DNA of 64,000 bases from a virus. Below, one piece after another: positions 448 to 49,055 of this stretch (positions are counted from its first letter, which is position 1; each line of letters opens with the position of its first letter). Made by a program: the position numbers and the translations under genes. The notes below the pieces were generated by a model. The model saw only the letters and a list, made by a program, of their open reading frames with translations, made no database searches and was not told where the DNA came from. Where the stretch lies: UHGV virus genome UHGV-0375936. One strand, written 5' to 3'.

Positions 448-1185
448 TTAATAGCCCTGATAAATGATGTCGTCACGGTCTTTACGTAACTGGCAGTATG
501 TTACGTCAGCACCGTTAGGGATTTGTACGCCAGCGTCTTCAAGATAAATAACACCAGTCTGATTACAGAAATAAAAAGACCACAAGTACGGATTGCCTTG
601 ACAACTGTTTTCACGATGATCGAAGGGCCAATAGCCTCGATACAATTCGTCGTAATCACCGCGCTCGATACCAAAAGCAATCATTTCTTTTTCCCACAAT
701 CTGCTTTCGGCGTCGTAAATCGAAAACCAGAAACCGACGAGGTTCTTTGTCCGTTTAACGTTCATTAAGTCGTTATAAATGGGGAAGAGTGCTTTATTGA
801 AACTTTCTAACATCCCTGGAGAGAGTAGAAAGTTCACGTAATATTCTAGCCATTGATAAACGGCTTCCCAGACATCCTCAGAAGAGAAATGCTCGAATAC
901 GGCGTCATCACAATCGTAGTTATCGAAGACCCCTGAGAGATCTATTATGACGTCGCGAAGGTCAAAGTTTCGGTTGGTATTGACACCCTCAATAACTTCA
1001 GCGATGAGACGAGTAAAGACGTTTGTGCAGGCAGTCTGTGCGGTATAAAAGAATTCTCCTTGTACGGTTGACCACTTTGGGTCCTTCAAATGTTCATTGA
1101 AGTATTGTGGCCAAATTTTATAAAAGATTCCCTCGAACAACGAGGGATTGATACGTTGTAATTGAGGGACATAAACTTTTAGCAT
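448..1185 (-). CDS. hypothetical protein
   Basis: 245-aa ORF, GGAG RBS upstream of ATG, same strand as neighbours. Confidence 0.6.
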   Translation of the reverse strand: MLKVYVPQLQRINPSLFEGIFYKIWPQYFNEHLKDPKWSTVQGEFFYTAQTACTNVFTRLIAEVIEGVNTNRNFDLRDVIIDLSGVFDNYDCDDAVFEHFSSEDVWEAVYQWLEYYVNFLLSPGMLESFNKALFPIYNDLMNVKRTKNLVGFWFSIYDAESRLWEKEMIAFGIERGDYDELYRGYWPFDHRENSCQGNPYLWSFYFCNQTGVIYLEDAGVQIPNGADVTYCQLRKDRDDIIYQGY

Positions 1186-1221
1186 TTTAATAACTCCAAT
1201 GGTGTTACACCTGGATAATAT

Positions 1222-1890
1222 CTATCTAAGAATATTTTTAGCGAAAAAAGGATCGACTATAAACTCCTTCACCTGTGAGTCATAACCCGAATGTATTTGA
1301 TCGCTACTGAGCAAATACCCGTCTAAATCGTGTGGAAGAATCCAAGAATCCCCCTGTTTAAAAATACCATAATCTGTTGTTCCAGAGGAAAAAACGATTT
1401 CCTCTGGAGAGGGATAGATGTGGCGTAAGGCAAGATCAGACGGCTTTAGCACGATTAATCGAACGGGATGTTGACTGACTGCCTCTTTAATAAACTGTTC
1501 ACGATTAAACCAAATTATTTTTTCGGGGTAAGTTTCGAATTCAGCCCATGTCCGCGTGATAACTAATTTGGAAATCTTTCTCAATTCTTCAGAATGCTCT
1601 GCGTAGCCGATACACTCCTTGCGTACTTCATGATTTTCTACCGATGCTGTGAATTTTTGGAATAGGTGTTGTTGGAAAAAGCCGTTCTCCGGGATATCAC
1701 AACCCGCGTTGTATAGTGCAACGATCTCCCACAACAACGAAAGAGAAAACACAAATGCTAACTTTTCCACAACTTCCCAATCTTCGGAGTAAGGGGCTTT
1801 AAAGCCCCAATACTGCCGTGCGTTATACATAAAGTGAGTTTGTAAAAACCGAGGGGCTTTTGACAAGACCTCACTATAAACGATCAGCAT
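1222..1890 (-). CDS. hypothetical protein
   Basis: 222-aa ORF, 7-nt overlap with upstream gene (translational coupling). Confidence 0.6.
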   Translation of the reverse strand: MLIVYSEVLSKAPRFLQTHFMYNARQYWGFKAPYSEDWEVVEKLAFVFSLSLLWEIVALYNAGCDIPENGFFQQHLFQKFTASVENHEVRKECIGYAEHSEELRKISKLVITRTWAEFETYPEKIIWFNREQFIKEAVSQHPVRLIVLKPSDLALRHIYPSPEEIVFSSGTTDYGIFKQGDSWILPHDLDGYLLSSDQIHSGYDSQVKEFIVDPFFAKNILR

Positions 1891-3404
1891 TCAAGCTCCT
1901 TATCCGTCAATATTCGTTTGTTTGAATAATAGCCGCACCACAACCCATGATATTTTTCCCCGATATAAACCAACGCGTACTCGATATACTGCCGTTCTGG
2001 ACGCCGTACCGCCACGTAGAATCGTCCTTCTGGTTCTTTCATACGGTTGATTTCCGTACGCGTCGGTATGTCGATACCTCGAGTAAGGATGGTTTTAACC
2101 TTGTTTTTGCTACCTGGGATATGGATGGTTACGTCAAAACCTTTATCTACGTTACGATAAAAGTCTTTCTTCGGCTTACCTTTCTCATCGTAAAGCAGGT
2201 CAGTAATGTCGTTCATTACGACTGAGTTTTTCCCCTCCATGGCATCGCGTAACCAACCTGCAAGCTCATCACGAATCGTAATGCAGCGATAAGACAATAA
2301 CGCGGGACGAAGAATTCGTGTAATCGAAAGATCTTCAAACATCCACAGGTTTTTGTCTTCGCTAAAATGCATCCGTTCGATAGGAATACCGTTAGCTGCG
2401 GCTTCTGCGAACTTCTTACGTTTTACGAATAAGTTAAATACAACGGCGATGGGATCAAATTGACGTAAACGGGGCACCCCTTCCCACGCTTTCGCAGAGT
2501 GGGTATTTACCAACTCGTATACGTTATCCCACGGTTCTTTGGTAAACATTACGCAGAATTGTGCGTCTGGAATGTACTTACCAACGAAGACGATATCGTC
2601 CTTCTGTTTTGCATGGTTCCCACCGAACATGTAATAAAGTTTATTACCGTTAACCGTAACCGTGGGATGCGGTTCGTTCACCATCGGGTAACAGAACTTC
2701 GTAACACAGATATCAGGAAAGGCAGACAAATTGACACCCTCGCCAACAACTTCTGGTTGCTGTTCTTCCTCAGGCATCTCGTCTTTTGACCAATACGGTG
2801 TATAGTCTAACCCATCACCTCGAGCCGAAATACTTGAACCTTTCCGTGCTAACTCGTCGGCACGTTCGTTTCCATAACGTCCTGAATGCCCTTTAATTTT
2901 AAGGACACGAACACCTTTCCCTTCTTTCTTTAACCGCTGTTTAACCTCCCACATCCGTTGGATTAATTCCAAGTTCGCAATAGGTGTACCGTCTGCACGA
3001 CGCCAACCGCGTGCAGCCCAACCATCAATCCAATCGTTATACGTGTTGACAACGTAAGAGGCATCGATATAGATAACATAGTTTTTGGCAACGAAAGGTG
3101 CGTGTTCGAAGACGGTCAGGAAAGCCACGAGTTCTGCAACGTCAGAGTGTGACATTTTTGGTACAGGCACAACGCCGTCAATAAACTCCACAGTTTCTGG
3201 TAAAGGTGGAAGTTTTTCATCCTTGTTTATCTGGCGGTATCCTGACGACGTAATCCCCTCTGGAATAGAGGGATGGCGGTAAACCCGACCATCCTCAATC
3301 GCTTCACGATTAAATAAGTATCCATGAATCCCCGCTCCTGTACCGAGCGGGGAGGTCAAATGGCTACCATCCGTGTAAATTACTGCAACATCAACGTTCT
3401 TCAT
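1884..3404 (-). CDS. RNase H-domain protein with about 300-aa C-terminal extension
   Basis: N-terminus VAVIYTDGS ... KIKGHSGRYGNERADELARKG resembles RNase HI active-site and C-terminal motifs; remainder unassigned. Confidence 0.65.
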   Translation of the reverse strand: MKNVDVAVIYTDGSHLTSPLGTGAGIHGYLFNREAIEDGRVYRHPSIPEGITSSGYRQINKDEKLPPLPETVEFIDGVVPVPKMSHSDVAELVAFLTVFEHAPFVAKNYVIYIDASYVVNTYNDWIDGWAARGWRRADGTPIANLELIQRMWEVKQRLKKEGKGVRVLKIKGHSGRYGNERADELARKGSSISARGDGLDYTPYWSKDEMPEEEQQPEVVGEGVNLSAFPDICVTKFCYPMVNEPHPTVTVNGNKLYYMFGGNHAKQKDDIVFVGKYIPDAQFCVMFTKEPWDNVYELVNTHSAKAWEGVPRLRQFDPIAVVFNLFVKRKKFAEAAANGIPIERMHFSEDKNLWMFEDLSITRILRPALLSYRCITIRDELAGWLRDAMEGKNSVVMNDITDLLYDEKGKPKKDFYRNVDKGFDVTIHIPGSKNKVKTILTRGIDIPTRTEINRMKEPEGRFYVAVRRPERQYIEYALVYIGEKYHGLWCGYYSNKRILTDKELEC

Positions 3405-3406
3405 TC

Positions 3407-4141
3407 TTAATCCCTGGTTAATTGATCACGAATCTGTGGCGCAACATACTCGCCTGTTTTCAGTTCTTCGTGACAGGCTTTGGCGCGTTCAAACCCGTAT
3501 TGGCGTGTGACCAAAGCGAGGTGGTAAATACGTGCCGTGGTGTAGGCTTCTTTTGCTGCATCCCACATTGCGTGGTGCTCAAAAGCGGGCTTACCGCGTG
3601 TCCAGTAAATTTGCTCTACGGTTAAGTCAGGCTCGAAACCAAATGCAAAGGCTAAACGTTCTGCAGTACGATCGCTATCCAGTGCACTAAATTTACGGAA
3701 CTTCCCTGGCGGAATATCACATTGTGCGAACGCGTTCATGAAAATCGGTGCATCAAAGTCAGGACCACGCATGGTAATAACAAATTCATGTTTTGCGGTA
3801 ATCTCCCCGAGCCATTTTTGCATCGCCCACAGTGCGTCCGGCAATGCTGTCGTCCCACCCCATGCTTCCGCATAGGCTTCACGAGACGGTGCGTATTCGG
3901 GTTCGCCTTTACCTTCCCACCAACCAACAGTTTGTGGGTCTTCGTGGAAAATGGCTTTTGCTTTAGGATCGTTAGGATCAATACGGATGTATGAGGAACC
4001 GACCATTTTCAATGTAGGGACGTCAAAGGCCACTAAACCTGCACTTAACAGATAAGCATCGGGACGTAATGATTTGGTTTCAGCATCAGCGCCAATAACC
4101 AGCGTCGGTGTGTACGGGGTGACAATTTTTGGGTAGGTCAT
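3407..4141 (-). CDS. putative DEDDh-type 3'-5' exonuclease
   Basis: Candidate Exo I (GADAET), Exo II (GPDFDAPIF) and Exo III (HHAMWDAAKEAY) motifs; AGGAGAA RBS. Confidence 0.5.
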   Translation of the reverse strand: MTYPKIVTPYTPTLVIGADAETKSLRPDAYLLSAGLVAFDVPTLKMVGSSYIRIDPNDPKAKAIFHEDPQTVGWWEGKGEPEYAPSREAYAEAWGGTTALPDALWAMQKWLGEITAKHEFVITMRGPDFDAPIFMNAFAQCDIPPGKFRKFSALDSDRTAERLAFAFGFEPDLTVEQIYWTRGKPAFEHHAMWDAAKEAYTTARIYHLALVTRQYGFERAKACHEELKTGEYVAPQIRDQLTRD

Positions 4142-4232
4142 GTTGAATTCTCCTGTTAGTCTACATTAAAATAGTCGTAAACGTTAAAAAGAAAGACCCT
4201 CCTGTACCACGAAAGGGTACAGGAGGGGGGTG

Positions 4233-4691
4233 TCAGTACAAACACGATGTCAAGTATTGGTTATACGAATCGAGCAGTGTCTGACGGTCGGAACGGTAAT
4301 TCCACAACAAATTATTGAGTTTACGCGATAAGTCACGGCTAATCTCCTGGGGCGTTAAAGAGCTTTCATCAAGAGATAAGCGTTCAGGTACAACATGTAA
4401 CTTCGGTAACTCATAACGTTCACAAAGTGGAGCCAGCATTGGTGGGCTCCAGCCACGTTTAACGGCTTGTTGGTTTAAATTTCGGGTGTAGACATAAACG
4501 TAGTAAGCATAGGTGTTGACATCCGCAACATACTCACGCATTGCATTATTGTCAATTTTCCAATTCACCATTATTGGCGGTGTAGGAGGAAGTTCCAGTG
4601 GCCTATAAGCTGGACGTTTAACTTCGTCGCCGTAGCTATTACTCACCAACCCCACGAACACCATCATGATGAATAACAGCATTTTCATCAA
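4233..4691 (-). CDS. secreted Pro-rich protein
   Basis: N-terminal signal-peptide-like hydrophobic stretch MMKMLLFIMMVFVGLVSNSYG, Pro-rich region after it. Confidence 0.5.
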   Translation of the reverse strand: MMKMLLFIMMVFVGLVSNSYGDEVKRPAYRPLELPPTPPIMVNWKIDNNAMREYVADVNTYAYYVYVYTRNLNQQAVKRGWSPPMLAPLCERYELPKLHVVPERLSLDESSLTPQEISRDLSRKLNNLLWNYRSDRQTLLDSYNQYLTSCLY

Positions 4692-5195
4692 TCACTCCTT
4701 AGAAGACGTTAGCGTCTTTATGATCTCCTGTCGAAAACTGTTCGCATTTAAATTGCCAACAGGTCTCGCCGAAGCCTCTTTACGTTGTTCTGGTGTTGAA
4801 GCTGGATTAACAGGAGTTTCTGGTTTTGTCGAAGACAGATCCTTCGCCGTACCGCTCGCTTTCGATGAATTAAACGTGCTTTCATATGGCGGTTTCTGGC
4901 CGAGGCAAACGAAGAGCCTGTCGTATAACTTCCCATTATCTTCTTTTAGTTTATCTCGATCTTGTTTCATCTCTTGGTAAGACTGCGACATATACGTGTC
5001 ATGAGACTGCACTGCAACGAGCGCGTGAAACTGTTGTACATAGGCGTAGGAGACGAAGCCAGAATACGACAACAAGATCGTGATGATTAAAGTCATTATC
5101 TTGCTTGCTCTTGATACGTTTTCTCCTTCTCCTGGTTTAAATGCTTCCATTAACATCTGAAGGAAGAACGGAAGCACTTTAAAAAATGAACCCAT
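4692..5195 (-). CDS. membrane-anchored coiled-coil protein
   Basis: Internal hydrophobic helix IMTLIITILLSYSGFVSYAYV followed by charged helical region; abuts 4233..4691. Confidence 0.5.
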   Translation of the reverse strand: MGSFFKVLPFFLQMLMEAFKPGEGENVSRASKIMTLIITILLSYSGFVSYAYVQQFHALVAVQSHDTYMSQSYQEMKQDRDKLKEDNGKLYDRLFVCLGQKPPYESTFNSSKASGTAKDLSSTKPETPVNPASTPEQRKEASARPVGNLNANSFRQEIIKTLTSSKE

Positions 5196-5220: not shown

Positions 5221-6594
5221 ATGTTAGACTTACAAGGTTTTATTCAGATACCGGCACTGTTTGACAATCAGGACGGCGTCACCGCTCCGGTGGGCGAGCT
5301 GTCGGATTTGACACTCTCGTACGCGAAGAGTAAACAGACGTTTACTAAAACCAATTTGCAAGTTCAATTGGTGACTTTTACGTCTAAACGAGAAAAACAG
5401 ACGGTTGTTGTACCAGCCGAATTTTCTGATCATATTCTAACCGTTTCTCAATGGATTTACCAGCAAGCCATCTTGGGGAATCTGAGAAATGACGAACTTG
5501 AATTCCAGCGCCTGTTACTAGGACAATTCCAATCAACCATTTCTGGCGTTCAGTCCGGTGCGATGATCCAGACGAACAGTAACTGGTTCCCACGCTGGGT
5601 GAGCTGGAAATATGAAGCAACAGCAGATCAAGTACAAGATGACACCGATGTAGATAATCAGATCATTGTTTGGTTCTCGGATGAAGACTTCGATCAAGAT
5701 TACACAGGGTTCGAAATCGAAGTGCAGATGCCGATTTCACCAATCGACACATTTTTGTCGACCAAGTCAGTCGTTGAAAAGGCGATGGAAGGGTTTAACC
5801 TTACCGAACACCATAAGAAAATCAATGAGTTAATGGCAGGGTTTCCTTACACCGCTATCCAAACCAACTACTATACTTGGCACGATAAAGAAAACTACGA
5901 GTCCACCCTAGTTGTCCCAATGTCGGTTATTATTTACGGCCGCGCGGGAAAAAACCCAACGAAAATAAAGCAAGCGTTGCGAGAACATATTCTCGCCAAT
6001 TCTAGCTTTACTGTCCCCGTCGGGGTAAAGGTATTTCCTGAAATTTTCACTACCACGAAATTTACAATTGTTCCTGGATGGAAAATTCGTGGAATACCTA
6101 ATGAGGAAGACGTAGCGGCGCTTTATTCCCCTATCCTTCCATATGATTTCTGGGTCAAAGCTATCAGTCGGTTTGGAGAATGGGCAGACCTGACGGTAGC
6201 AGAAAGAAATACTAAAACGATCAGTAAGCCTACGACAGATGTAACTGACTTACCAACCGTTTATAAATCATTAAACTGTGTTGTAATCAGTGGGCCAGAA
6301 AATGATACGCGGAAAGCGACCTTACACGAAACTATCCCGGATTATGCGTTAATTGCGACGACTAACCCTGATATTGCGCGTATGTCGAAAACAACGACCG
6401 AATGGTTGGCGTTATTTTTCCAGGCACTTATTGCTGCGGAAGAATACCACCCGTATCAAACCAGCTTGGATATTGTAAAACTGGTCGATGAGGCTGACCC
6501 TGATAACTACTTCTGGGTGTTTGAATACGACAACGTAGAATATCGTATCCTGTCTCGGAAAGCGAAATGGTACACCGAGTTAGACAAGGAGTAA
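5221..6594 (+). CDS. hypothetical protein
   Basis: 457-aa ORF on plus strand inside a minus-strand block. Confidence 0.6.
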   Translation: MLDLQGFIQIPALFDNQDGVTAPVGELSDLTLSYAKSKQTFTKTNLQVQLVTFTSKREKQTVVVPAEFSDHILTVSQWIYQQAILGNLRNDELEFQRLLLGQFQSTISGVQSGAMIQTNSNWFPRWVSWKYEATADQVQDDTDVDNQIIVWFSDEDFDQDYTGFEIEVQMPISPIDTFLSTKSVVEKAMEGFNLTEHHKKINELMAGFPYTAIQTNYYTWHDKENYESTLVVPMSVIIYGRAGKNPTKIKQALREHILANSSFTVPVGVKVFPEIFTTTKFTIVPGWKIRGIPNEEDVAALYSPILPYDFWVKAISRFGEWADLTVAERNTKTISKPTTDVTDLPTVYKSLNCVVISGPENDTRKATLHETIPDYALIATTNPDIARMSKTTTEWLALFFQALIAAEEYHPYQTSLDIVKLVDEADPDNYFWVFEYDNVEYRILSRKAKWYTELDKE

Positions 6595-6597
6595 TGA

Positions 6598-7221
6598 ATG
6601 GCTACGCGTTTACCACTCCAGGTACCAGTCAACACCACGGGACTGTTCAAAGTAAAAACACCATTTACTTTGGCCGAGACGGTCATTTATACGGTAGAAG
6701 CGTCACGTACCTTCCCAGATTTAGTACGTCAGAATATTGACGTTTATAACTCGTATTACCAGCCAGTAGGGCTAGGACGTGAAGAATATTTAGCAGATGC
6801 GAATGTTAGTGCGTCGATTTTAACATTTAAATCTCGGGACGGTCAAGTTGTATACATACCTGACACCTACCTGGAATCATACCCAGGTTTATCCGGGATC
6901 ACGTATCAACGAAATGTGTTAGTAGTAGATTTGGCACTGGTACCGGATTACGTGAAAGTGTCGTCTATAACAAAAGACGTTTCAGATATTCTCACGCATA
7001 CACTAGGGATTGAGCCGAAAGTTGAAATTACAACGCTCGAGTATGAGGGGAAGGTAACGGAGGAACAGCACTTGCAGATGGAAGCGGCACGAAAAAATAA
7101 AATTCGTGAATCTATTCCATTAGGTGAGAAAGTTGCTGCGTTGACAGAAGAGAACAAAAAATTAAAAGAGTTAAACAACCAAATGTTAGAGATTCTTAAA
7201 GCTAACGGGTTAGTTAACTAA
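6598..7221 (+). CDS. hypothetical protein with C-terminal coiled coil
   Basis: 207-aa ORF 3 nt after previous stop; C-terminus KVAALTEENKKLKELNNQMLEILKANG. Confidence 0.6.
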   Translation: MATRLPLQVPVNTTGLFKVKTPFTLAETVIYTVEASRTFPDLVRQNIDVYNSYYQPVGLGREEYLADANVSASILTFKSRDGQVVYIPDTYLESYPGLSGITYQRNVLVVDLALVPDYVKVSSITKDVSDILTHTLGIEPKVEITTLEYEGKVTEEQHLQMEAARKNKIRESIPLGEKVAALTEENKKLKELNNQMLEILKANGLVN

Positions 7222-9412: not shown

Positions 9413-9922
9413 TTAGAAGAACGGCTGATTTGGAATGACAGCGTACTCTAAAATGAACATATGTTCCGGGGCGTCTTCTTTACGCCAGACTTTGTGTGTC
9501 GACACAAGTTTTTCCAGAATCGTTAAGAAACTACGTTGGCAGTATGTGTTTTCACCAAGCAGTAGATTTTGAAGTTCTACAGTAGCGTCCATATACGCCT
9601 GTTTAAAGACTAAACTACGGTTATACTGCCCGGTAAAATTCCAAAGCAAGACCTTCCCTTCTTCGGTTTCTTTTACCGTTGGCCGTAAACCACAAATCCA
9701 CAGTAAGGCAAGGTTGACGTTCCAGTCAAACTCTAAACCTTCTTCTTCGTCAACACCGAATGCTGTGGGTAAAGCATCGTAAAATTCGTGTTTCTCTGCG
9801 AATTCTTCATCCGACTTAATCTCGTCTTCGATACTGCTTCGGACAATACTGTAAACGTCTTTCGCGGTCAATTGTGCGGCTTTTGTAATGCCTTTATACC
9901 AATCGGTTACTACGATGCTCAA
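9413..9922 (-). CDS. hypothetical protein
   Basis: 169-aa ORF, 4-nt overlap with upstream gene. Confidence 0.55.
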   Translation of the reverse strand: MSIVVTDWYKGITKAAQLTAKDVYSIVRSSIEDEIKSDEEFAEKHEFYDALPTAFGVDEEEGLEFDWNVNLALLWICGLRPTVKETEEGKVLLWNFTGQYNRSLVFKQAYMDATVELQNLLLGENTYCQRSFLTILEKLVSTHKVWRKEDAPEHMFILEYAVIPNQPFF

Positions 9923-10644
9923 AGGGTAACTCCTCTATTGATTGGAAAACTCGTGTTTATCGTATCCCAAATTCTACTAACTTCCGCCAGTTGAATCTGA
10001 CGTGGTGTTTTCTTCGCAAACGCAAGCTGACGTGGGGCCGAGCCCACAACAACAGGCACATCGATTTTCGCGCTATAGAACGAGGCGTCTTTCATAAAGC
10101 CTGCCATTTCTCGTTGTGCTGCTCGAGATTTGCTTTTGATTCGCGTGTGAGCGCCACTTTCACCCCAGTGGTAAGCTAACGCAACTTCAGCCATGGTGGG
10201 CTTGCGTTTGAGTCGTTTGGTTAACCCCTTCTCAAGATGTTTAACATACGCGGTAGCCAGCAAAACAGCATTACGCGGATTATACAAATCGGCGTTCTGA
10301 CTAAGACCTAATTCTTTTCCATAAAGCTTTAGCAGATTACGCTTGGTACTTGGAAGCATTTGTACCAGGCTGTGTGCTCGTGAGCTTTTGTTGTAAGCCT
10401 TGGGATCAAAACGCGATTCACGATAAATCAGCGTAATCATCAGCTTGGGATCAACGCCCTGCTTTCGTGAGATTTCCACAATTAACGGGCTGACTTTTTC
10501 GAACCGATGTTGGATTTGTGCAAACTCTCGCTGATGCTTAGAATGTGGCGTTGACGTTGACGCCTGTGCGTTAAACGCGAAAAGTGTTACCAGTAAAAGA
10601 AAGAAGATACGAAACATTTTGTTTCTCCAGTTGGATTTATACAT
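9919..10644 (-). CDS. lytic transglycosylase (SLT domain) with signal peptide
   Basis: Signal-like MFRIFFLLLVTLFAFNAQAS; SLT catalytic region LIYRESRFDPKAY...SLVQMLPST. Confidence 0.75.
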   Translation of the reverse strand: MYKSNWRNKMFRIFFLLLVTLFAFNAQASTSTPHSKHQREFAQIQHRFEKVSPLIVEISRKQGVDPKLMITLIYRESRFDPKAYNKSSRAHSLVQMLPSTKRNLLKLYGKELGLSQNADLYNPRNAVLLATAYVKHLEKGLTKRLKRKPTMAEVALAYHWGESGAHTRIKSKSRAAQREMAGFMKDASFYSAKIDVPVVVGSAPRQLAFAKKTPRQIQLAEVSRIWDTINTSFPINRGVTL

Positions 10645-12709: not shown

Positions 12710-12895
12710 CTAATTCCGCCATTCGCATTCGCGTTGACGCCAAATTGAACCCCACGATAGTTTAATCAGATAAGATGAAACTACCCATAAAATCATCACC
12801 ACACAAAACATGACATAAAGAACCGCTAGAATGGACATGAAGCCAAACCCTGCCGCATCCACAATACGACGGAACCAATCAGTTTGCATAAACAA
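12710..12895 (-). CDS. small membrane protein
   Basis: 61-aa ORF with long hydrophobic core; overlaps the stop of the ATPase gene. Confidence 0.4.
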   Translation of the reverse strand: MFMQTDWFRRIVDAAGFGFMSILAVLYVMFCVVMILWVVSSYLIKLSWGSIWRQRECEWRN

Positions 12896-15383
12896 TTTTT
12901 ACTCCTTCGTTATACACCGCAGGCAATGTCACCCCTTCCGGTTCGATGACACAGTACGATGCTTCATTAAGTTTAGAATGAACCTCGGCTTCGTGGGAGA
13001 CTACCAACAGTTGGGAAAATTCTCCCGAGTTTGCTAACGTTTTAATAAAACCGACCAGGTTGTTACGGTGCTCCTCATCCATGCCTTCCGAAGGCTCATC
13101 CAAAAGCAACGGAAACTGATGCAACTTCAGCGCTTTGTACGCAGTCAGCCTGAACATCAGATTAAATATCGCACGCTGCGCCTTAGACCCTTTACGCACG
13201 TCAGGAACAGGCTCAGGATGCGTTTTTAGCTGGACAGGAAAAGTATAATCCAAATCGCCGTCAGTGAGGTCACAAGGCATAACGCGCATGGGGTACGTCC
13301 AGACCTGTTCGATATAACGCGTCATTAACTCTGTGATTCTAACGATAGCGTTGTAAAAATACTTTCTAAGTACACCCTTTTCTGGCGAGAAGGCTTGAAT
13401 CATCAGTTTGTTATTGAACTGCTGGGCTTGTAAGTCAGCAAGTTCGCGTTCCAAACTGTTGAGCTGATTCAATTCATTTTCCATCTGACGATAACGTTCG
13501 CGTGCGGTTGTAAAAGCATCCAGCTTCCCTTCTCGAGCACGTAAGAGTTCCTCGACGACCGTATTTGTCAACGTAACCTTAACATCACTCTCTAACCGTT
13601 CGAATAACGCACTGAAATCATCTACAGCACGTTTAACATTCACCAGATAGGTAAGTGTCGTGTTAGCCAGTTCGTGCTCTCTACGACGCATTGAGAGCAT
13701 CTCTGTGGCTTTACCTAATCGTGACTGTTGAAAAGCAATTTTCTGTTGTAAAGCACCATCGACGTTACCAACGGCCGCTACGGCATCCTGCCATTCTTTT
13801 TCCGCCTTCACTAACCGTTGTCGGGTTTCATGGTACTCAATAGCAGAGTACAACTCACTGTCAAACGCTGCGCATAGACTACCGAACTGTTCACGTGATT
13901 CTGTGAAAACGTTACGTTCTTGCAAACGCTTAAAGAACATGCTCAATACCGGGTCCTTTGAATACGTCAGCACAATCTCACGAACCTGCCGCATATAAGT
14001 TACATCAGATTCTAACTCAACACGATCGCGTAATAGGGCCTCTAACTGCGTTTGCAGTTCCGTGCGCTGCTGCTGTTGTCCACGAATCGAAGACTCAAGT
14101 TCAGGTAAAGAACGTGTAACACCAGGCCGAAACTTAAACCGGCACTGCGGACAATCCACTTCCGCTGTTTCTAAGTAGTGATTACGTTCGTGATTTAAAT
14201 TCTGTAAAACGTTCTCCACTCGCTGGAGTCTATCCCGCAACCCTGCGGTTTTTTGATCCATCACCAGAAGCCGTTCTTCCAAAACATTGAGTTTTTCAGT
14301 TGAATGAATTGCGTCCAGTGTTGTTCCTAACCGTTGCCCCCAAACACGCGCATCGGTAGCCGCACGAAGTTGGTCTAAATTGACGTTGTCGTTAAATAGA
14401 CCCGGAAAGAGATGCTCGGTGTCCCATTTGGTAAGTAACTCACGTAAACGCGCCAATGTATTCTTGAGACCTTCGTGATTCCGCATCAGGTAGTCTTGTC
14501 GTGTTGACTCATCCATCAATAACGACAAGTCTTTATTCAACATCGATACCTCTGTTTCAGTAGACACGACAGCTTCGCGGGCCGTCGCTTCGTTTTGTCG
14601 CGCGACCAGTATCTGTTCATCGGTAGGCAGGCCACCACGATGTTGTAATATTGCGTCGATGGTTGGGCCCAAGCTGTTTAATAACGCTTGGATTGTTTCG
14701 ATGGTGACGGCACGATTTAATCCTGGCAACTGTTCGATTTCTCGGTTCAATTCACGTAAATCCGATTCCAAACCTTTTAATCTCGTCGCTAACTGCTGCC
14801 GTTCTTCCTCGTTCTCAATAACACGCGTCCGTAATTCGGCGATCTTGCGGCTGGTGATTTCAATACCCCCATTTAAGGCAGTAAGGTTTTTACGTAAACG
14901 TTGATAAAACCCTAACGCGTAAGTGAGGTCAGAGGTACTTAAACGGTAAAACCATTTGCGGCGTAATTCGGTTCCCGCATCGGTTAACAACACCTCACCA
15001 TTTAATAGTTCTTTAATCTCTTTCGTAATACCCGTGATTTCTTCAACACGGGAGTTGTAGACTTTCGCATTACCTTGCTCGACGATCTTTGTCCCCGTGG
15101 TCAGGTTCTCAATATCGCAAACCAAAGAGTTGCCTTTACGGGCAACTTTGAATCGATAGCGTTGATCGCCAACTAAACAGTAGTTCGTGTAAGAACCGCC
15201 GTCCCTGAATTCAGTTTTAGCTGGTGCTAAGGGTAAGAACACAGACAGTAGACTGGTTTTCCCGCAGCCGTTCCCACCCAGGATAATTGTTGTCGGAGAC
15301 TGGATAGTGAAATCGAAGGTTTCAATTTCATGTAACCCCATCCCCGTAAAACCTTTGAGTATAATGCGTTCAACTTTTAGCAT
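12879..15383 (-). CDS. SbcC/Rad50/SMC-like ABC-type ATPase with long coiled coil
   Basis: Walker A GGNGCGKTSLL; coiled-coil middle; C-terminal LLLDEPSEGMD...LLVVSHE (Walker B/D-loop/H-loop); start probably ATG 15383 after GGAGG. Confidence 0.7.
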   Translation of the reverse strand: MLKVERIILKGFTGMGLHEIETFDFTIQSPTTIILGGNGCGKTSLLSVFLPLAPAKTEFRDGGSYTNYCLVGDQRYRFKVARKGNSLVCDIENLTTGTKIVEQGNAKVYNSRVEEITGITKEIKELLNGEVLLTDAGTELRRKWFYRLSTSDLTYALGFYQRLRKNLTALNGGIEITSRKIAELRTRVIENEEERQQLATRLKGLESDLRELNREIEQLPGLNRAVTIETIQALLNSLGPTIDAILQHRGGLPTDEQILVARQNEATAREAVVSTETEVSMLNKDLSLLMDESTRQDYLMRNHEGLKNTLARLRELLTKWDTEHLFPGLFNDNVNLDQLRAATDARVWGQRLGTTLDAIHSTEKLNVLEERLLVMDQKTAGLRDRLQRVENVLQNLNHERNHYLETAEVDCPQCRFKFRPGVTRSLPELESSIRGQQQQRTELQTQLEALLRDRVELESDVTYMRQVREIVLTYSKDPVLSMFFKRLQERNVFTESREQFGSLCAAFDSELYSAIEYHETRQRLVKAEKEWQDAVAAVGNVDGALQQKIAFQQSRLGKATEMLSMRRREHELANTTLTYLVNVKRAVDDFSALFERLESDVKVTLTNTVVEELLRAREGKLDAFTTARERYRQMENELNQLNSLERELADLQAQQFNNKLMIQAFSPEKGVLRKYFYNAIVRITELMTRYIEQVWTYPMRVMPCDLTDGDLDYTFPVQLKTHPEPVPDVRKGSKAQRAIFNLMFRLTAYKALKLHQFPLLLDEPSEGMDEEHRNNLVGFIKTLANSGEFSQLLVVSHEAEVHSKLNEASYCVIEPEGVTLPAVYNEGVKIVYAN

Positions 15384-15461
15384 ACCCACCTCCATAAAGA
15401 CGGAGTGTGGTGTAAAAAGAAAAAAATAAAGAAAGGGAGAACCCGAAGGTTCTCCCTAACG

Positions 15462-16631: not shown

Positions 16632-16658
16632 TAAAAAGGACCCCGGACGTACCGGGGC
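16632..16658 (-). terminator. Rho-independent terminator
   Basis: CCCCGG...CCGGGG hairpin with A-run on plus strand. Confidence 0.5.
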
Positions 16659-16669
16659 CAAGACTACAC

Positions 16670-17059
16670 TCAAAGATCTAATTCGATAGCACCAGCCATC
16701 TTGCCCCGTTCTTCTATAACGATCAGATAACGGTCGCGAGATTTGCTTTTAGCGAGAGTTAAGACAACGGTAGGGTCGCACGTTTTCGTGGTGATAGGAA
16801 GAACCTCTCTTGCGACGGAATCGAGCAGAAAGTAATAACCTGCGGGACACATTGTGCCGCCATCAGCTTTTACCAGAATATAGCGCCCGTCTGCGCCGAC
16901 TTCTTGGCAGATTGTTTCACCGACTTCGCAAACTTCAAACCCCGGAGGATTGTACTGGTAATCGGTATTGTTGTTTGGGGTTAGCAGTAAATCGTTAACT
17001 TGAGTAGATGCTGCTACACTCAGGGAGAAGAAGAATGCTAAAACGCAGACGAGACGCAT
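16670..17059 (-). CDS. small secreted protein
   Basis: N-terminal signal-like MRLVCVLAFFFSLSVAAS. Confidence 0.55.
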   Translation of the reverse strand: MRLVCVLAFFFSLSVAASTQVNDLLLTPNNNTDYQYNPPGFEVCEVGETICQEVGADGRYILVKADGGTMCPAGYYFLLDSVAREVLPITTKTCDPTVVLTLAKSKSRDRYLIVIEERGKMAGAIELDL

Positions 17060-17069
17060 GAGTTACTCC

Positions 17070-17480
17070 TTAAATTTTAAGTTTATCCATAGCTACAACG
17101 ATAGGTTTTTCCGAAGTGTCTAATATCCCTACCATTGGCACACCATCTACGACTTCGAAGAATGGTTTGTTATTACCAGAGCATAGACGTTTGTCGTTGT
17201 ATTCGAGACGCTGAGCCTTCCACGTTTCGAGGTTGAGTACGGACATTGGGCTGTCGTAGCACCAGGCACCACCTTGCTCAACGATGAATACGTATCTGCT
17301 ACCTTTGTATTTAAACAGGCTCTTTGCCTGGCAGTACAACCCGTCTATTTCCGTACAATAGAAATCATCGGTGCTATTGACGTACTTAATATTGTCTGGC
17401 AACTGTATTGTCTTTGCTGTAGCGTTGACAGAGAACAGAACAGCCATTGCAATGAGAAGAGTATTAATGATAGTTTTCAT
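17070..17480 (-). CDS. small secreted protein
   Basis: N-terminal signal-like MKTIINTLLIAMAVLFSVNATA. Confidence 0.55.
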   Translation of the reverse strand: MKTIINTLLIAMAVLFSVNATAKTIQLPDNIKYVNSTDDFYCTEIDGLYCQAKSLFKYKGSRYVFIVEQGGAWCYDSPMSVLNLETWKAQRLEYNDKRLCSGNNKPFFEVVDGVPMVGILDTSEKPIVVAMDKLKI

Positions 17481-17491
17481 GATAAAAGTCC

Positions 17492-17977
17492 TTAGTATTT
17501 AGATTGTTCTACGTACTTCTTAACCAGGTAAGCGAATTCGGCAACACCGATATCACCGAACCAAATCAGGTAACCGGGGTCGATGTTGTAGTAATAACCG
17601 ACGAGTTTCTTGGTGTGTGGGTTGTATAGCGTTACGATGTATTCCCAACCACAAGCGTTAGCTTTACAACCGCCACTTTCAATCCAGATTTTGTTGTTGA
17701 TGTTTACCGGATACATGTTACCGCCAGGGCCATCCATGTAACCTTTAGAGCCGAACATACCATCCAGTCCCACAGGGTCTAGTGTTTTATCAACAACGGC
17801 TTTAAACGACTTATCGGTATCGTACAAGTCGTTGATGTTTGGGCACGCATTTGGCTGGCCTTCCCAAGCGTTTCCATCACAGGTAAGCAATTCGTCTACG
17901 GAGGCCGCATCTACAGTTGGCGTGGCACCGATAAACAAGAAAACCAGAAAGAACATCAGTGTATGTAAACGTTTCAT
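17492..17977 (-). CDS. small secreted protein
   Basis: N-terminal signal-like MKRLHTLMFFLVFLFIGATPTVDAA. Confidence 0.55.
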   Translation of the reverse strand: MKRLHTLMFFLVFLFIGATPTVDAASVDELLTCDGNAWEGQPNACPNINDLYDTDKSFKAVVDKTLDPVGLDGMFGSKGYMDGPGGNMYPVNINNKIWIESGGCKANACGWEYIVTLYNPHTKKLVGYYYNIDPGYLIWFGDIGVAEFAYLVKKYVEQSKY

Positions 17978-17995
17978 TGTAACTACTCCTTTAGA

Positions 17996-18388
17996 TTATT
18001 CGGCAGGACGATTTAAGGTAACGCGTCCGATTAATTCAGCGTTGTGAAAGAAGTCCACAGCGGTATAGTTACCAACTGATAGCGGATGGATACTAACTGA
18101 CATTACTTTTGGTTGTTCGCAGGCGATATCCGTCAGGCGTTGGTAGACTTGTGCACGAGTGTCAGCAATGAGTAATCCCGTACACGTTTCACCACGCACT
18201 AAACGATAAACTTGCAGTTTACCGAAACTGCGCATTAACGTAGGCGTCTCATCCGGGTTGATAATCGGTGACTCAGGAGCCGGTTCGTAATAGCGGACAT
18301 CCGAATCACCGAAAGCATAAGTGCCAGTAATTCCGACCGCACAGAAAACAATGATAGTATAAAGTATAGTTCTGATATTCATTTTCAC
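17996..18388 (-). CDS. small secreted protein
   Basis: N-terminal signal-like MKMNIRTILYTIIVFCAVGITGTYA. Confidence 0.55.
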   Translation of the reverse strand: MKMNIRTILYTIIVFCAVGITGTYAFGDSDVRYYEPAPESPIINPDETPTLMRSFGKLQVYRLVRGETCTGLLIADTRAQVYQRLTDIACEQPKVMSVSIHPLSVGNYTAVDFFHNAELIGRVTLNRPAE

Positions 18389-18410
18389 GCACTCTAAAAA
18401 AGATTAATAC

Positions 18411-18872
18411 TTATTTGTTAGGACGGGTGTGTCCACAGTTCTGGAAGAAAGTTTCAGATAAACGATCGCCTTCTACGGTAAAGTTAGCGGCATCGTTACC
18501 ATTGATACTCACACTGAAAGTTTTGGCATTACCGATAGCATTAACGAAAGCAACCCAAGCGTGTTCTGCCTTGTCGCTACCGTCCACGGTAGGGATGTTA
18601 TAGGTTTTGCCGTTTACGACAATATCCATCATGTTATCTTCAGCGTTAGTTGCACCTACGGGTTCCCCGTAATACCAAACCATGCGACCGTAAAATTTGC
18701 GATTCACAGTTTCTGTGTCACAGTTGATAGACAGTCCGTTTCCGGCGGTGTCTTCGATTTCGTAAACTGCCTGGCCAGGGTTTTGTATTTGTTCCCAACT
18801 ATTGATTGCAGCGTATGCGCTATTGAGGCCGAAAGTTAAAATGGTTATTAAGAATGTGATAAAGGTTTTCAT
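18411..18872 (-). CDS. small secreted protein
   Basis: N-terminal signal-like MKTFITFLITILTFGLNSAYA. Confidence 0.55.
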   Translation of the reverse strand: MKTFITFLITILTFGLNSAYAAINSWEQIQNPGQAVYEIEDTAGNGLSINCDTETVNRKFYGRMVWYYGEPVGATNAEDNMMDIVVNGKTYNIPTVDGSDKAEHAWVAFVNAIGNAKTFSVSINGNDAANFTVEGDRLSETFFQNCGHTRPNK

Positions 18873-18918: not shown

Positions 18919-19290
18919 TTAAATAACTGTGTTGGGTAATGCTTTAATCTGTGTATAACTATCTCCGATACCTCTTATCATTTCCAGACGCTCTTCTGTA
19001 GAAAGGCTTTGGTTAATGTCTTTGTCAAGATTGAACAGTGTCAAGAGTTTTGCAATTGCAACCGTCAAGTTGTCGGACAGCTCGTTGTTTTTACGCCATT
19101 CTTCGTTACGGAAAATAGAGATAAGGTCTTTCGCCTGGCCTTCAGCGTGCGGTTTGGCTAACTGCGCGTCACGCTGTTCGATAAGGTATGCTTCGTTAGT
19201 AAGTAAACGTTTCAGGTTTTCTGGGTTAGTGGCAGCGCGAGTAACGATCATTAATACAACAAACGGGTCTTTAAATAATTCGTTTTTCAT
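18919..19290 (-). CDS. hypothetical protein
   Basis: 123-aa ORF directly downstream of a conserved promoter-like element. Confidence 0.55.
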   Translation of the reverse strand: MKNELFKDPFVVLMIVTRAATNPENLKRLLTNEAYLIEQRDAQLAKPHAEGQAKDLISIFRNEEWRKNNELSDNLTVAIAKLLTLFNLDKDINQSLSTEERLEMIRGIGDSYTQIKALPNTVI

Positions 19291-19295
19291 CTTTA

Positions 19296-19373
19296 GTTCT
19301 CCTAAAATGGTTTTCGTTAAGTGAGAGCTTTTGTACTCTCACCTAAGTAATATATATCTGAAATTATTTTTAA
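19296..19373 (-). promoter_or_regulatory. conserved AT-rich box plus 5' hairpin element (copy 1)
   Basis: Near-identical to 55955..56027; minus strand reads TTTCAGATATATATTACTTAGG then hairpin GTGAGAG-TACAAAAGC-CTCTCAC then RBS and ATG. Confidence 0.45.
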
Positions 19374-19383
19374 TATTAACGAA

Positions 19384-19416
19384 CAAAAAAATAAAAGGTG
19401 GGGGTAAACCCCCCAC
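19384..19416 (-). terminator. Rho-independent terminator
   Basis: GGTGGGGG-TAAA-CCCCCACC hairpin with A-run on plus strand. Confidence 0.55.
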
Positions 19417-19421
19417 CGATG

Positions 19422-20012: not shown

Positions 20013-20786
20013 CTAATAATTAAGTTTTACATCGGCAATAAACAGCAATTGTTTACCATGTTGCTGCACTTCTTTCCAACCTAGTTTCATAGCAGCGTCA
20101 ACAACATCTAACATGCTGTAACGGGACATCAAAGATTCTGATTTTGTTCCTGACATTAAGTAAAGTGGCTCATTAGGGCTACGGTCACGTGCGTCAGGAA
20201 GTTCCCGAGAGACTGCTGATCCTTCGGGTACGGTAACAACATGAATCACGGTAAATGGTCTCTTGTGCGTCAGATAGATACGAAACCCAACGTGTTCAGA
20301 TTCATGAAAGACTTTCTTCACAACCACATCTTTTAGTGTCGTCTGAACATCAGCCCCAGGTAATATCGTGGTTTCACGTGAAACGAAACAACGGCTATTT
20401 TCAATCGTGGAGAAATAATTACGTATCGGCAAACTAGCGTTATGATCGCGCAGTTTTTTGCTCAGTAGATCGAAGTTCAGTTCTTTAACTTTCTCTAGCC
20501 ATTCTTTGGCTTGTTGAATGTAATAACTACCGACAGTGCGATAAGTTAATACCTTACCTGTGCTTACTTTCCAAAGTTTAACGCTTAGTGAATTTGGCTT
20601 ATAGCGACGATACTCACCCCGCGTATAGTTGATGCGCTCGTAACGCTCTACATCGTCAACGGGTGCAGATTCGATCGATTGTAATTGCAGCGTACGATCT
20701 AATCTATCGGCGAATAGTAGTGATGTTAGCGGACCTTCGATCAAATACGGTTCGGTTTTAAAGATATCATCTAGATGGATTTTCAT
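20013..20786 (-). CDS. hypothetical protein, tandem paralog family member
   Basis: C-terminus LGWKEVQQHGKQLLFIADV shared with three neighbours; N-terminal LDDIF. Confidence 0.6.
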   Translation of the reverse strand: MKIHLDDIFKTEPYLIEGPLTSLLFADRLDRTLQLQSIESAPVDDVERYERINYTRGEYRRYKPNSLSVKLWKVSTGKVLTYRTVGSYYIQQAKEWLEKVKELNFDLLSKKLRDHNASLPIRNYFSTIENSRCFVSRETTILPGADVQTTLKDVVVKKVFHESEHVGFRIYLTHKRPFTVIHVVTVPEGSAVSRELPDARDRSPNEPLYLMSGTKSESLMSRYSMLDVVDAAMKLGWKEVQQHGKQLLFIADVKLNY

Positions 20787-20853
20787 TTCTATTTCCTTCT
20801 TAACAAAAGCCGCGACTAAAGCGCGGCAGTTAGAGAAAGTCTATTTTTACTTA

Positions 20854-22005
20854 TTAGAGGTCAGCAACAAACAACAGCTGGCAGCCGTACTTTTGTACGT
20901 CCGCCCAACCGTAGTCTTTTCCGATTATAGGTAGATGTAAAATATCCAGCTTCTCGTCTTTCGCTTTTAGTTTCGCCATTAACGCATTGGACTCCTCAGC
21001 ACTGAGGAGTAATGCTGGCTCTTTTTCAGTACGTCCTTCTGCGGTTGGGAAGAAATTGTAATAGCTGCGAGTAGGTAAATCGACAGAAAAACTACGATTG
21101 CCTATTCTGGCGATGAACGCAACTCCTTCACAGTTAGCATCTACACTACACGACCATCCCGCCTCCGTTAAAAGGTCTTTTAACAGACACCACACTTTAA
21201 GTTGGTTCTTAGAAACTGTACGGTAAATAGCAAGATGTTCAGGAAGTAAATGTACGCCCATAACCACGTTTTCAGATTTCTCGTCAAGCAACTCTGGATG
21301 CTGTATCGGGAACAATAATTCACTGATACCCACGTTATCAATTTTGTTAACAAAATCAGTTAATTCATCTTTTAAGGTAGACACTTGATTTTCTCCTTTG
21401 TCTTCAATAATCAGGTGGGGTTCGCCGCTAATTAAAATGTGGTAAACGAGATCGTCAGTAGAACGGTAAGTGAGCTTGATTGCTTTATCACTTAATATTT
21501 CGTAGCGGAAGAAACTTTCGTACCAACTTGAGCCGAAATCGTTTTGTGTAAGCTCCTGCTCAACTTTGATGGTTTTTGCTTCAAAGCCGATTAACTCGCT
21601 TAATAACGCGAGTTCTTGTTTAGTTAAAATAGCTACACCGTGAAAGGGCACTTGTTCAAGCTGAAAACATAACTTAGTGACTTCACCATTTGGGAAGACC
21701 TTAAACATAATCTTCCGGTTGCTACTCTTTTCCCTAACAACGAGTTTACGGTAATTTAGTCCACAATTTGTGTAAGCCGCGAACTGGTAACCTTCAATTT
21801 CTTCATCGGAAGTACAGACATCGACAGGCGCGATAATCTCATCGTATTCACTAAGTACACAGCAGCCCAATTTATAACCAAACAACGTATGTTGTAAAAA
21901 ATAGTCGAGGGTTAAGCTTGGTAGTGGCCAAGCCCGATTATAGCATCTGTCCATCAGTTCTTTTAGGTACTTGGCATGTCTTGGTTTAGAAATAATATTT
22001 CGCAT
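20854..22005 (-). CDS. hypothetical protein, tandem paralog family member
   Basis: C-terminus FFPT...GWADVQKYGCQLLFVADL. Confidence 0.6.
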   Translation of the reverse strand: MRNIISKPRHAKYLKELMDRCYNRAWPLPSLTLDYFLQHTLFGYKLGCCVLSEYDEIIAPVDVCTSDEEIEGYQFAAYTNCGLNYRKLVVREKSSNRKIMFKVFPNGEVTKLCFQLEQVPFHGVAILTKQELALLSELIGFEAKTIKVEQELTQNDFGSSWYESFFRYEILSDKAIKLTYRSTDDLVYHILISGEPHLIIEDKGENQVSTLKDELTDFVNKIDNVGISELLFPIQHPELLDEKSENVVMGVHLLPEHLAIYRTVSKNQLKVWCLLKDLLTEAGWSCSVDANCEGVAFIARIGNRSFSVDLPTRSYYNFFPTAEGRTEKEPALLLSAEESNALMAKLKAKDEKLDILHLPIIGKDYGWADVQKYGCQLLFVADL

Positions 22006-22036
22006 TTTTACTCTCCTTTAGGGGTTTTTTCGTTAC

Positions 22037-22591
22037 TTAAGCAGGGCAAGCTAAGAACAACAACTGCTGACCGATTTTACGTACGGTATACCAACCGTGG
22101 GCTTTAGCGACCGCGATCAACGTTTCCCAGTCATCAACATCACATTGCTCGTTCCGAAGTTTTGTAAAGAGTGCTTCGGCTTCGTCTTGGTTTAATAACT
22201 TACCTGGATTATCAGGGGTGGTGCCAGAAGGGGTTGGAAAGAAATCGTATTGACGCGCTAAGAGAAAATCAACCAGATACTTGGTGTTCTCTTTATAAAC
22301 CAGTGTGGAAGTCTTCCCTTCGTGGAAGAAGCTGCCTGTTTTCCAAACGCTATCTTTCAGTAAGCTCTGAAGGTAATCTGTAAAGCCCGTTCTAAATGGG
22401 ATATGCGTTTTACGCGTGATGTTGCGACGCAGCGGGGTTTCCTCCACAGCTTGTACACTCACCCCTACTATCATCGCACCTGGCTGAATAATGGTATTGG
22501 TCAGTACGGTATAGGGACAGTTAAAGAAATGTTCACCTACACCTTTTTCAAGGGATTGGATAATTTCATTTTTCAGTTTAGTCAGATACAT
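22037..22591 (-). CDS. hypothetical protein, tandem paralog family member
   Basis: C-terminus FFPT...GWYTVRKIGQQLLFLA. Confidence 0.6.
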   Translation of the reverse strand: MYLTKLKNEIIQSLEKGVGEHFFNCPYTVLTNTIIQPGAMIVGVSVQAVEETPLRRNITRKTHIPFRTGFTDYLQSLLKDSVWKTGSFFHEGKTSTLVYKENTKYLVDFLLARQYDFFPTPSGTTPDNPGKLLNQDEAEALFTKLRNEQCDVDDWETLIAVAKAHGWYTVRKIGQQLLFLACPA

Positions 22592-23691: not shown

Positions 23692-23747
23692 TAGGGACTG
23701 AACTGGTACTTCAGTCCCTATTCACTTAAGTAAAATATATCTGAAAT
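23692..23747 (-). promoter_or_regulatory. conserved AT-rich box plus hairpin element (variant copy)
   Basis: Minus strand ATTTCAGATATATTTTACTTAAG followed by 10-bp stem hairpin AGGGACTGAA/TTCAGTCCCT. Confidence 0.4.
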
Positions 23748-48940: not shown

Positions 48941-48944
48941 AAAC

Positions 48945-48980
48945 TACCCTACTCCTTAACGGGAGTAGGGTATAGTCATT
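48945..48980 (+). terminator. Rho-independent terminator
   Basis: TACCCTACTCC-TTAACG-GGAGTAGGGTA hairpin right after the lipoprotein stop. Confidence 0.6.
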
Positions 48981-49055
48981 TTAACCGCCAAATCGTGCGT
49001 AGAACGCATTCTAAGCGCCTTTATACAAAATAAGGTATAAACGCCTTAGAAATAA

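Follow-up and report, generated by a model that had tools for sequence, protein, structure and literature searches.

To our knowledge, phage-encoded periplasmic inhibitors of muralytic enzymes are represented by essentially one case, the Spackle protein of phage T4. Spackle (gp61.3) is an early, signal-peptide-bearing, disulfide-bonded periplasmic protein that inhibits the gp5 tail lysozyme and acts in superinfection exclusion (PMC7677548). The bacterial inhibitor Ivy contributes to the lysozyme tolerance of Escherichia coli (PMC2267010), and in vitro lytic transglycosylases are at least partly inhibited by Ivy proteins (PMC10139938). Here we describe a block of five consecutive minus-strand genes in UHGV virus genome UHGV-0375936, of which a stretch of 64,000 nucleotides (the window) was analysed; the genes, designated A to E, encode small proteins with predicted export signals, and one of these proteins, C, is assigned to the Ivy superfamily as a divergent member. 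We tentatively propose that the block is an early accessory cassette that acts in the periplasm and in which C would block a muralytic enzyme in the service of superinfection exclusion.

The window comes from a giant phage of the Salmonella/E. coli type, a distant relative of phages SPN3US (Seoulvirus) and phiEaH2 (Erskinevirus), with which its synteny is clear; this lineage consists of lytic jumbo phages. The genes of the block are annotated 'hypothetical' throughout, and the block as a unit is without annotation anywhere.

Results

Five predicted exported proteins in succession

The five consecutive open reading frames (ORFs) of 129–161 amino acids (aa) that the initial annotation had placed on the minus strand are present with exactly the positions and sizes it gave (Table 1). 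Its claim that each begins with a signal peptide is upheld by a home-made heuristic that scores the n-, h- and c-regions, together with homology to known periplasmic proteins. By this heuristic, all five N-termini are basic, contain zero acidic residues and have a 10-residue hydrophobic core (Kyte-Doolittle mean 2.5–3.3) that is followed by a small-x-small site, that is, VAA/S in A, ATA/K in B, VDA/A in C, TYA/F in D and AYA/A in E (the slash marks the predicted cleavage). Besides A–E, just three of the ~71 remaining ORFs in the window pass the heuristic (4233–4691, the SLT protein and the lipobox protein in Table 1); given eight positives among 76 ORFs, a run of at least five has a permutation P~2e-4.

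The mature regions contain four (A, B and C) or two (D and E) cysteines, all even numbers, and these cysteines are invariant among the orthologues, as expected if the proteins are disulfide-bonded and oxidised in the periplasm. Residues 1–25 of C, the predicted signal peptide, fall outside the folded part of its AlphaFold2 (AF2) model. The block proteins have no conserved lipobox, on which ground a reading as lipoproteins or spanins was rejected; A and B, with AXA-type sites and no lipobox, also lack the lipoprotein signal that marks the YfjS family (vide infra). From the homology of C to Ivy, of E to YfjT and, probably, of A and B to YfjS, we infer with good support that the products of the block are periplasmic or secreted.

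C is assigned to the Ivy superfamily

A search of 50,697 phage records finds no match to C, and an NCBIfam search with C gives a sole match, 'Ivy family C-type lysozyme inhibitor', with E=1.3e-3 and 18.6 bits against a cut-off of 180. With a shallow profile of the C family, the top three PDB matches are Ivy structures with aligned C-K-x-x-x-C loops, at scores that are not significant; hhalign of the C family against E. coli Ivy gives P=3e-4. The link becomes significant through intermediates. An exhaustive HMMER search with the C-family profile identifies 56 relatives (E down to 1e-22), several of which are named 'Ivy family c-type lysozyme inhibitor' by NCBI. We aligned C, three close homologues and 23 of the 56 relatives; 23 of these 27 sequences individually match Pfam Ivy, and the 27-sequence profile matches the structures 1GPQ, 1XS0, 1UUZ and 4PS6 with E=7e-12 to 5e-9. 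The loop cysteines of C (C104 and C109, C-x4-C) are invariant in all 27 sequences; most members read CE[AP]HNC, or even CKPHAC, and the CKANAC loop of C aligns to the CKPHDC loop of 1GPQ. When the AF2 model of C (predicted local distance difference test, pLDDT, 63.7; 70–83 in the core) is searched with Foldseek, the top eight PDB matches are all Ivy (prob 1.0, template-modelling score 0.58–0.66) and are followed by noise. Profile, modelled fold and annotated relatives agree in assigning C to the Ivy superfamily as a divergent member that has an additional N-terminal cysteine pair (C33/C45).

The loop of C differs at one position of interest. We take His60 of E. coli Ivy to be the central loop residue that plugs the active site of lysozyme in the 1GPQ complex; the equivalent residue in C is Asn. 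Of the 27 aligned sequences, 21 keep the loop His, as does the E. coli allele P0002 (CKAHAC).

Known phages contain almost no proteins of the Ivy type: tblastn with canonical Ivy over the same 50,697 phage records gives one match, in phage PHB10, and BFVD contains no Ivy-fold match. The PHB10 homologue (Escherichia phage; MK524177.1, 14591–14950) is 38% identical to E. coli Ivy (E=8e-23) and is annotated hypothetical.

C alleles are shared with islands of E. coli

Homologues of C with ~65% identity are found in E. coli chromosomes, where they belong to the cargo of CP4-like islands and are flanked on one side by a dynamin/YjcZ/patatin cluster and on the other by genes for DUF932, antirestriction, RadC and CbeA proteins. 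The island gene occurs in 138 of 5,426 complete E. coli genomes (~2.5%), is always chromosomal and is always a 'hypothetical protein' in RefSeq. The phages themselves contain two allele types of C that are 64% identical to each other, one of which is 91% identical to an E. coli-type allele; also, a single cluster at 90% identity contains members both from phage-sized contigs of 222–225 kb and from 5-Mb E. coli chromosomes. The identity of C between phage subclades is 65%, as compared to 75–94% for its neighbours. From these identities, C appears to be a gene that moves between phage and host, with alleles exchanged with E. coli islands.

Directly upstream of the Ivy-like gene in the E. coli islands (~600–4965 in loci L004–L008), Dynamin_N (794 aa), YjcZ and patatin genes are found together with an unannotated 180-aa gene; this dynamin-YjcZ-patatin cluster has the look of a candidate defence module, and its dynamin gene carries an inserted IS21-type element in some strains.

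A and B are probable relatives of YfjS, and E is assigned to the YfjT family

The initial annotation had described the five proteins as unrelated apart from their signal peptides. We stripped the signal peptides and compared the mature regions using hhalign; the description holds for C, D and E, which by this comparison are separate families, and fails for A and B. A, B and the type represented by SPN3US gp181 (designated G) form one family in which a Phe is invariant and four cysteines are in register (B-G, P=1.3e-12; A-G, P=9e-7; A-B, P=4e-5); this family of paralogues also takes in SPN3US gp181–gp183. The link of D to A is at most marginal (P=0.0066), and D appears to be phage-specific, with no known relatives.

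Outside the phages, the A/B/G profile aligns to an 18-sequence YfjS profile over 92 columns (hhalign Prob 72.5%, P=3.3e-5). Among 961 island ORFs, the sole match of the hidden Markov model (HMM) of A is YfjS, and the best genuine phage matches of the YfjS HMM are orthologues of A, over their full length; the reciprocal matches are specific but weak (E~0.003–0.02). A and B are therefore graded by the profiles as probable, not proven, remote homologues of the E. coli island lipoprotein YfjS. Several other relationships were rejected: D as a YfjS homologue is unsupported (P=0.047 over 15 columns), and a relationship of A, B, D or E to Ivy gave P>=0.14, except for E (P=0.022 over 14 columns). For the inhibitor family MliC/PliC (PF09864), neither the 17 A/B/G members nor D gave a Pfam match at E<=1. 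A match of the A/B/G profile to the PDB entry 'ThreeFoil' (E=5e-6) is an artefact of three identical repeats, each with a per-domain E of 10–16.

Homologues of E (72–99% identity) carry the precomputed Pfam annotation PF27224 'YfjT', and E matches the YfjT encoded by the CP4-57 prophage of E. coli K-12 (BLASTP E=2e-14 over 133 aa); in the alignment of the E family, C51 and C146 are invariant and the signal peptides are aligned. On these grounds, E is assigned to the YfjT family. The lipoprotein gene yfjS is located directly upstream of yfjT, and the two are adjacent in all 29 bacterial loci collected (Escherichia, Citrobacter, Kluyvera, Serratia, Erwinia and Mixta); a genome scan with YfjS returned relatives only at identities of at least 87%. 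Besides yfjS-yfjT, CP4-57 contains abpAB and rnlAB, which are anti-phage genes. Our literature search identified no paper on YfjT function.

The block as a transcription unit

The unit begins with a 123-aa gene and continues with E, D, C, B and A, with spacers of 10–46 bp and AGGAG-type ribosome-binding sites on every gene but D. From the spacers, the ribosome-binding sites, the flanking terminator-like hairpins and a conserved promoter-like motif (Table 1), we read the block as one transcription unit. The 123-aa gene is present in the window and in L009 and is absent from L010–L012 (all contigs of the window's own clade); it is an insertion/deletion difference between the promoter-like motif and E.

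The AT-rich motif TTCAGATATATATTAC has five copies in the window at <=3 mismatches, as compared to 0.7 expected. The four copies on the minus strand are intergenic and aimed at the downstream gene; they are of the type [C/T]TCAGATATA[T/A]TTTAC, followed by the GTGAGAG...CTCTCAC leader hairpin, and identity extends over ~75 nt of flanking sequence between the copies at 19347 and 56002. The motif is kept upstream of the block's unit in 13 of 13 related phage loci from four genera and is identical in the Seoulvirus, Erskinevirus and Machinavirus loci. Sigma-70 promoters are fewer in the region than in shuffled sequences, and our literature search found no paper on the motif. A review of the RNA polymerases (RNAPs) of jumbo phages states that, in each phage so far profiled, conserved AT-rich motifs of this type turned out to be early promoters for the virion RNAP (PMC7598289). 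The motif probably heads the unit as an early promoter and is probably the early-promoter consensus of this group of phages; given the conserved AT-rich motif and the published pattern, it is reasonable to infer early expression of the unit.

Conservation and turnover of the block

The block can be followed into SPN3US gene by gene. The SbcC/SMC gene corresponds to gp186, the 202-aa gene to gp185 and the 158-aa gene to gp184, so that the orthologous block sits two genes upstream of the SbcC/SMC gene; A corresponds to gp183, B to gp182, the position of C to gp181 and D to gp180, and E has no counterpart. Every protein encoded by SPN3US gp180–gp183 and phiEaH2 gp104–gp107 starts with a predicted signal peptide. 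The same five genes as in the window are found in contigs L009–L012 (220–225 kb), and the evolutionary rates of A, B, D and E are close to those of neighbouring phage genes.

The content of the block changes among close relatives. It is D-G-B-A, with C absent, in Seoulvirus and Erskinevirus, and D-B-A in Machinavirus Huxley; L020 contains two tandem YfjT genes, that is, a duplicated E, followed by D-C-B-A. In L021, two YfjT genes are followed by a truncated D call, B is lost, and a chimeric gene occupies the place of C before A. The chimera (6427–6879, 150 aa; Salmonella enterica assembly GCA_008966875.1, 223-kb contig) joins a signal peptide nearly identical to that of C (MKRLHALMF...) to a mature domain of the G type (the B/gp181 family), which speaks for a swap of domains with the export signal retained. 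Such rapid change in gene content is a pattern typical of accessory, conflict-driven loci.

Table 1. Positions of the block, of its flanking elements and of other features in the window.
Feature	Coordinates	Strand	Description
A	16670–17059	-	129 aa; predicted exported 4-Cys protein, phrog_5248; orthologue SPN3US gp183
B	17070–17480	-	136 aa; predicted exported 4-Cys protein, phrog_8968; orthologue SPN3US gp182
C	17492–17977	-	161 aa; predicted exported, assigned to the Ivy superfamily (divergent); loop C104-KANA-C109; extra N-terminal Cys pair C33/C45
D	17996–18388	-	130 aa; GTG start; predicted exported, phrog_9424; 2 conserved Cys; orthologues SPN3US gp180, phiEaH2 gp104
E	18411–18872	-	153 aa; predicted exported, assigned to the YfjT family; 2 conserved Cys
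123-aa gene	18919–19290	-	phrog_27024; first gene of the unit; no signal peptide
5'-leader hairpin	19321–19342	-	GTGAGAG-N8-CTCTCAC; recurs with the promoter-like motif at 56002 and (variant) 60367
Promoter-like motif	19347–19362	-	AT-rich, TTCAGATATATATTAC; heads the unit, just past the upstream terminator
Other minus-strand motif copies	23730–23745; 56002–56017; 60367–60382	-	intergenic
Terminator-like hairpin, upstream	19397–19417	-	GGTGGGGGGTTTACCCCCACC + T-run; closes the upstream unit
Terminator-like hairpin, downstream	16639–16659	-	GGCCCCGGTACGTCCGGGGTC + T-run; 11 bp past the A stop codon; closes the unit
SbcC/SMC gene	12879–15395		orthologue SPN3US gp186
ORF	4233–4691		passes the signal-peptide heuristic
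SLT protein	9919–10644	-	presumed endolysin; 241 aa; N-terminal signal or SAR (signal-arrest-release)-like sequence + SLT domain (Pfam 4.9e-15)
Muramidase	50331–50921	-	GH108 + PG_binding_3; adjoins the DUF1353 gene
DUF1353 protein	49549–50223	-	
Lipobox protein	48458–48940	+	lipobox LASC; passes the signal-peptide heuristic
Radical-SAM protein	43716–44639	+	Pfam Radical_SAM 6e-14; CxxxCxxC motif
Radical-SAM protein	44623–45945	+	Pfam Radical_SAM 3e-15; CxxxCxxC motif
Three neighbouring paralogues	20013–22591	-	257, 383 and 184 aa
SASA/DUF6645 protein	60432–62552	-	706 aa; sialate-O-acetylesterase-like (SASA) domain + DUF6645

Other features of the window

The gene for the lipobox protein is oriented opposite to the nearby genes for the GH108 muramidase and the DUF1353 protein; together, 48458–50921 may be a second lysis-related cluster. 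The two radical-SAM genes are adjacent and overlapping, and a 190-aa ORF followed by a gene for a DUF4376 protein is located downstream. The 257- and 383-aa members of the three paralogues share with SPN3US gp175 a conserved C-terminal motif, G-x-QLLF[IV]AD. The 706-aa SASA/DUF6645 protein may be a tail spike or tail fibre that modifies a receptor.

Discussion

In the mechanism that we propose, the unit, a conserved accessory operon of SPN3US-like jumbo phages, is probably transcribed early in infection. A–E would be exported via Sec, lose their signal peptides and assume small disulfide-bonded folds in the periplasm of the infected cell; the cassette would be a mosaic of families common to the CP4-type integrative islands of Enterobacteriaceae, with D a phage-specific member. 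As in Ivy, a disulfide-clamped loop that lies between two beta-strands of C would face the active-site cleft of a glycosidase that cleaves peptidoglycan (a lysozyme or lytic transglycosylase) and block it; the most likely purpose would be to shield the wall of the infected cell from the muralytic enzymes of later-arriving phages, in the manner of T4 Spackle. The remaining members may act on other periplasmic or envelope targets. Taken as a whole, an early periplasm-acting cassette in which C blocks a muralytic enzyme for superinfection exclusion seems to us to have a little less than an even chance of being right. What the analysis shows is the gene structure, the export signals (by heuristic), the family assignments, the anatomy of the operon, its conservation and turnover, and the lack of the orthologues in the SPN3US virion; location in the periplasm, early timing, inhibition, target and role belong to the proposal. 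The initial annotation had suggested superinfection exclusion, receptor masking or envelope remodelling; an exclusion or envelope role for the block is plausible and now has a concrete lead, the Ivy-like fold predicted for C, besides a probable early promoter.

Several points weigh against this proposal. C alone gives no Ivy match in Pfam at E<=1 and is below every curated Ivy threshold (PF08816/NF007443), the confidence of its model is moderate, and, with the loop His changed to Asn, C may inhibit lysozyme only weakly in the classical manner or may have a different target. E. coli Ivy inhibits lytic transglycosylases only weakly (PMC10139938). A, B, D and E are without known function, the model of A (shallow alignment; pLDDT 43) is unusable and contains only beta-strands, and PADLOC, which covers known defence proteins, gives zero matches for the block. 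Also, the signal peptides were scored heuristically, and the early timing is read from the promoter-like motif.

The main rival explanation, which we regard as unlikely, is lysis timing, that is, that C, perhaps with other members of the block, restrains the phage's own exported SLT endolysin or GH108 muramidase until the lysis signal. The SLT protein has homologues in 143 phage records that are annotated 'putative endolysin' or 'transglycosylase', and its signal sequence precedes the SLT domain, so it would reach the periplasm before lysis; the partial inhibition of lytic transglycosylases by Ivy proteins in vitro (PMC10139938) also fits this explanation. However, phages of Seoulvirus and Erskinevirus conserve the exported SLT protein but lack an Ivy-like gene, so C cannot be its obligatory partner; the two genes are ~7 kb apart in different units, and an early promoter suits exclusion better than control of lysis. 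For an endolysin that is exported, the question arises how its activity is restrained. We consider it similarly unlikely that the block remodels the envelope or takes over the host through other targets (receptors, Tol-Pal, envelope-stress sensors or the periplasmic parts of defence systems), with C keeping the Ivy scaffold but retargeted once its loop His was lost. This would accommodate the Asn in the loop, the four of five proteins that have no inhibitor-like signature and the company that the genes keep in bacteria, where relatives of C adjoin the dynamin/YjcZ/patatin cluster and antirestriction genes and yfjS-yfjT share CP4-57 with abpAB and rnlAB. No positive evidence points to any specific alternative target, however, and the strict conservation of the C-x4-C loop and of the beta-hairpin around it argues that the functional site continues to be the loop.

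Two further explanations are less probable. E. coli owes part of its lysozyme tolerance to Ivy (PMC2267010), and close homologues of C and E are encoded by bacterial chromosomes, so the genes might be passengers in the phage that protect the bacterium from animal lysozyme or environmental stress, as proposed for chromosomal Ivy; this is improbable, since long-term benefit to the host is irrelevant to a lytic jumbo-phage lineage, the block is kept with its own phage promoter-like motif across four genera, and A, B, D and E evolve like the phage genes around them. More improbable still is that the N-termini are not cleaved export signals and that the proteins are membrane-anchored, cytoplasmic or components of the virion. 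The calls were made by the heuristic instead of a dedicated predictor, and in some orthologues of D (phiEaH2 gp104) the hydrophobic segment could serve as a signal anchor; against this, every h-region is followed by an AXA-type site, C and E are homologous to periplasmic Ivy and YfjT, and the cysteine counts are even and conserved. As to the virion, the mass-spectrometry table of the SPN3US particle (PMC5105663, Table S4) has no entry between gp173 and gp193, and gp180–gp183 are absent from it; block proteins as virion components are rejected for the orthologues by this table. In the SPN3US virion papers searched, gp180–gp183 are not mentioned, and the infection and expression papers that our search turned up contain no gp180–gp183 data.

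One extension of the proposal, doubtful as it stands, is that YfjS-, YfjT- and Ivy-like exported proteins are a mobile toolkit for the periplasm which jumbo phages and CP4-type chromosomal islands trade with each other, and which works as a multi-component exclusion system, e.g., by neutralising the wall-degrading tail enzymes of incoming phages; if true, it would provide a first function for yfjS and yfjT, which belong to the E. coli y-ome, and a branch of Ivy whose natural targets are phage enzymes, not animal lysozyme. An Ivy-fold protein in an operon such as this one would also revive the question of the real purpose of Ivy-type inhibitors. The block ties three unannotated E. coli families (yfjS, yfjT and the 'hypothetical' island gene) to a phage context that suggests testable functions, and it marks a fast-evolving locus in a model group of jumbo phages, most of whose genes are without an assigned role.

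Comparison with known systems

The blocks of SPN3US and phiEaH2 are the nearest counterparts: they are syntenic with the block in the window, are headed by the same promoter-like motif and encode predicted signal peptides throughout, but consist of four genes, in which the B-paralogue G replaces C and a YfjT-like E is missing. The yfjS-yfjT pair of CP4-57 resembles the block in that E is assigned to the YfjT family, A and B are probable YfjS homologues, and exported-protein genes are carried by a mobile element, as in the phage; it differs in the export signals, which are the lipoprotein lipobox LSAC in YfjS and type-I signal peptides in A and B, and in the order and number of the genes. This comparison provides no mechanism.

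For C, the comparison is with Ivy (PF08816, NF007443; 1GPQ, 1XS0, 1UUZ and 4PS6). C has a predicted Sec signal peptide, the same alpha/beta fold in its model and the same beta-hairpin with a C-x4-C loop that would be closed by a disulfide, and the homology is significant via intermediates; unlike Ivy, it falls below the curated thresholds on its own, has Asn for His in the loop, contains the extra conserved N-terminal cysteine pair and is encoded by a jumbo phage and by the cargo of E. coli islands. T4 Spackle, a small phage-encoded periplasmic protein with a cleaved signal and a disulfide, is the functional model that we propose for C. The two are unrelated in sequence and fold (neither PHROG nor Pfam gives a link to the Spackle family): Spackle is an all-alpha bundle that acts allosterically, whereas C has the Ivy fold in its model and belongs to a five-gene cassette for which inhibitor activity is only proposed. 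If that proposal is correct, an Ivy-fold inhibitor in a jumbo-phage operon would be a second, independent solution beside Spackle.

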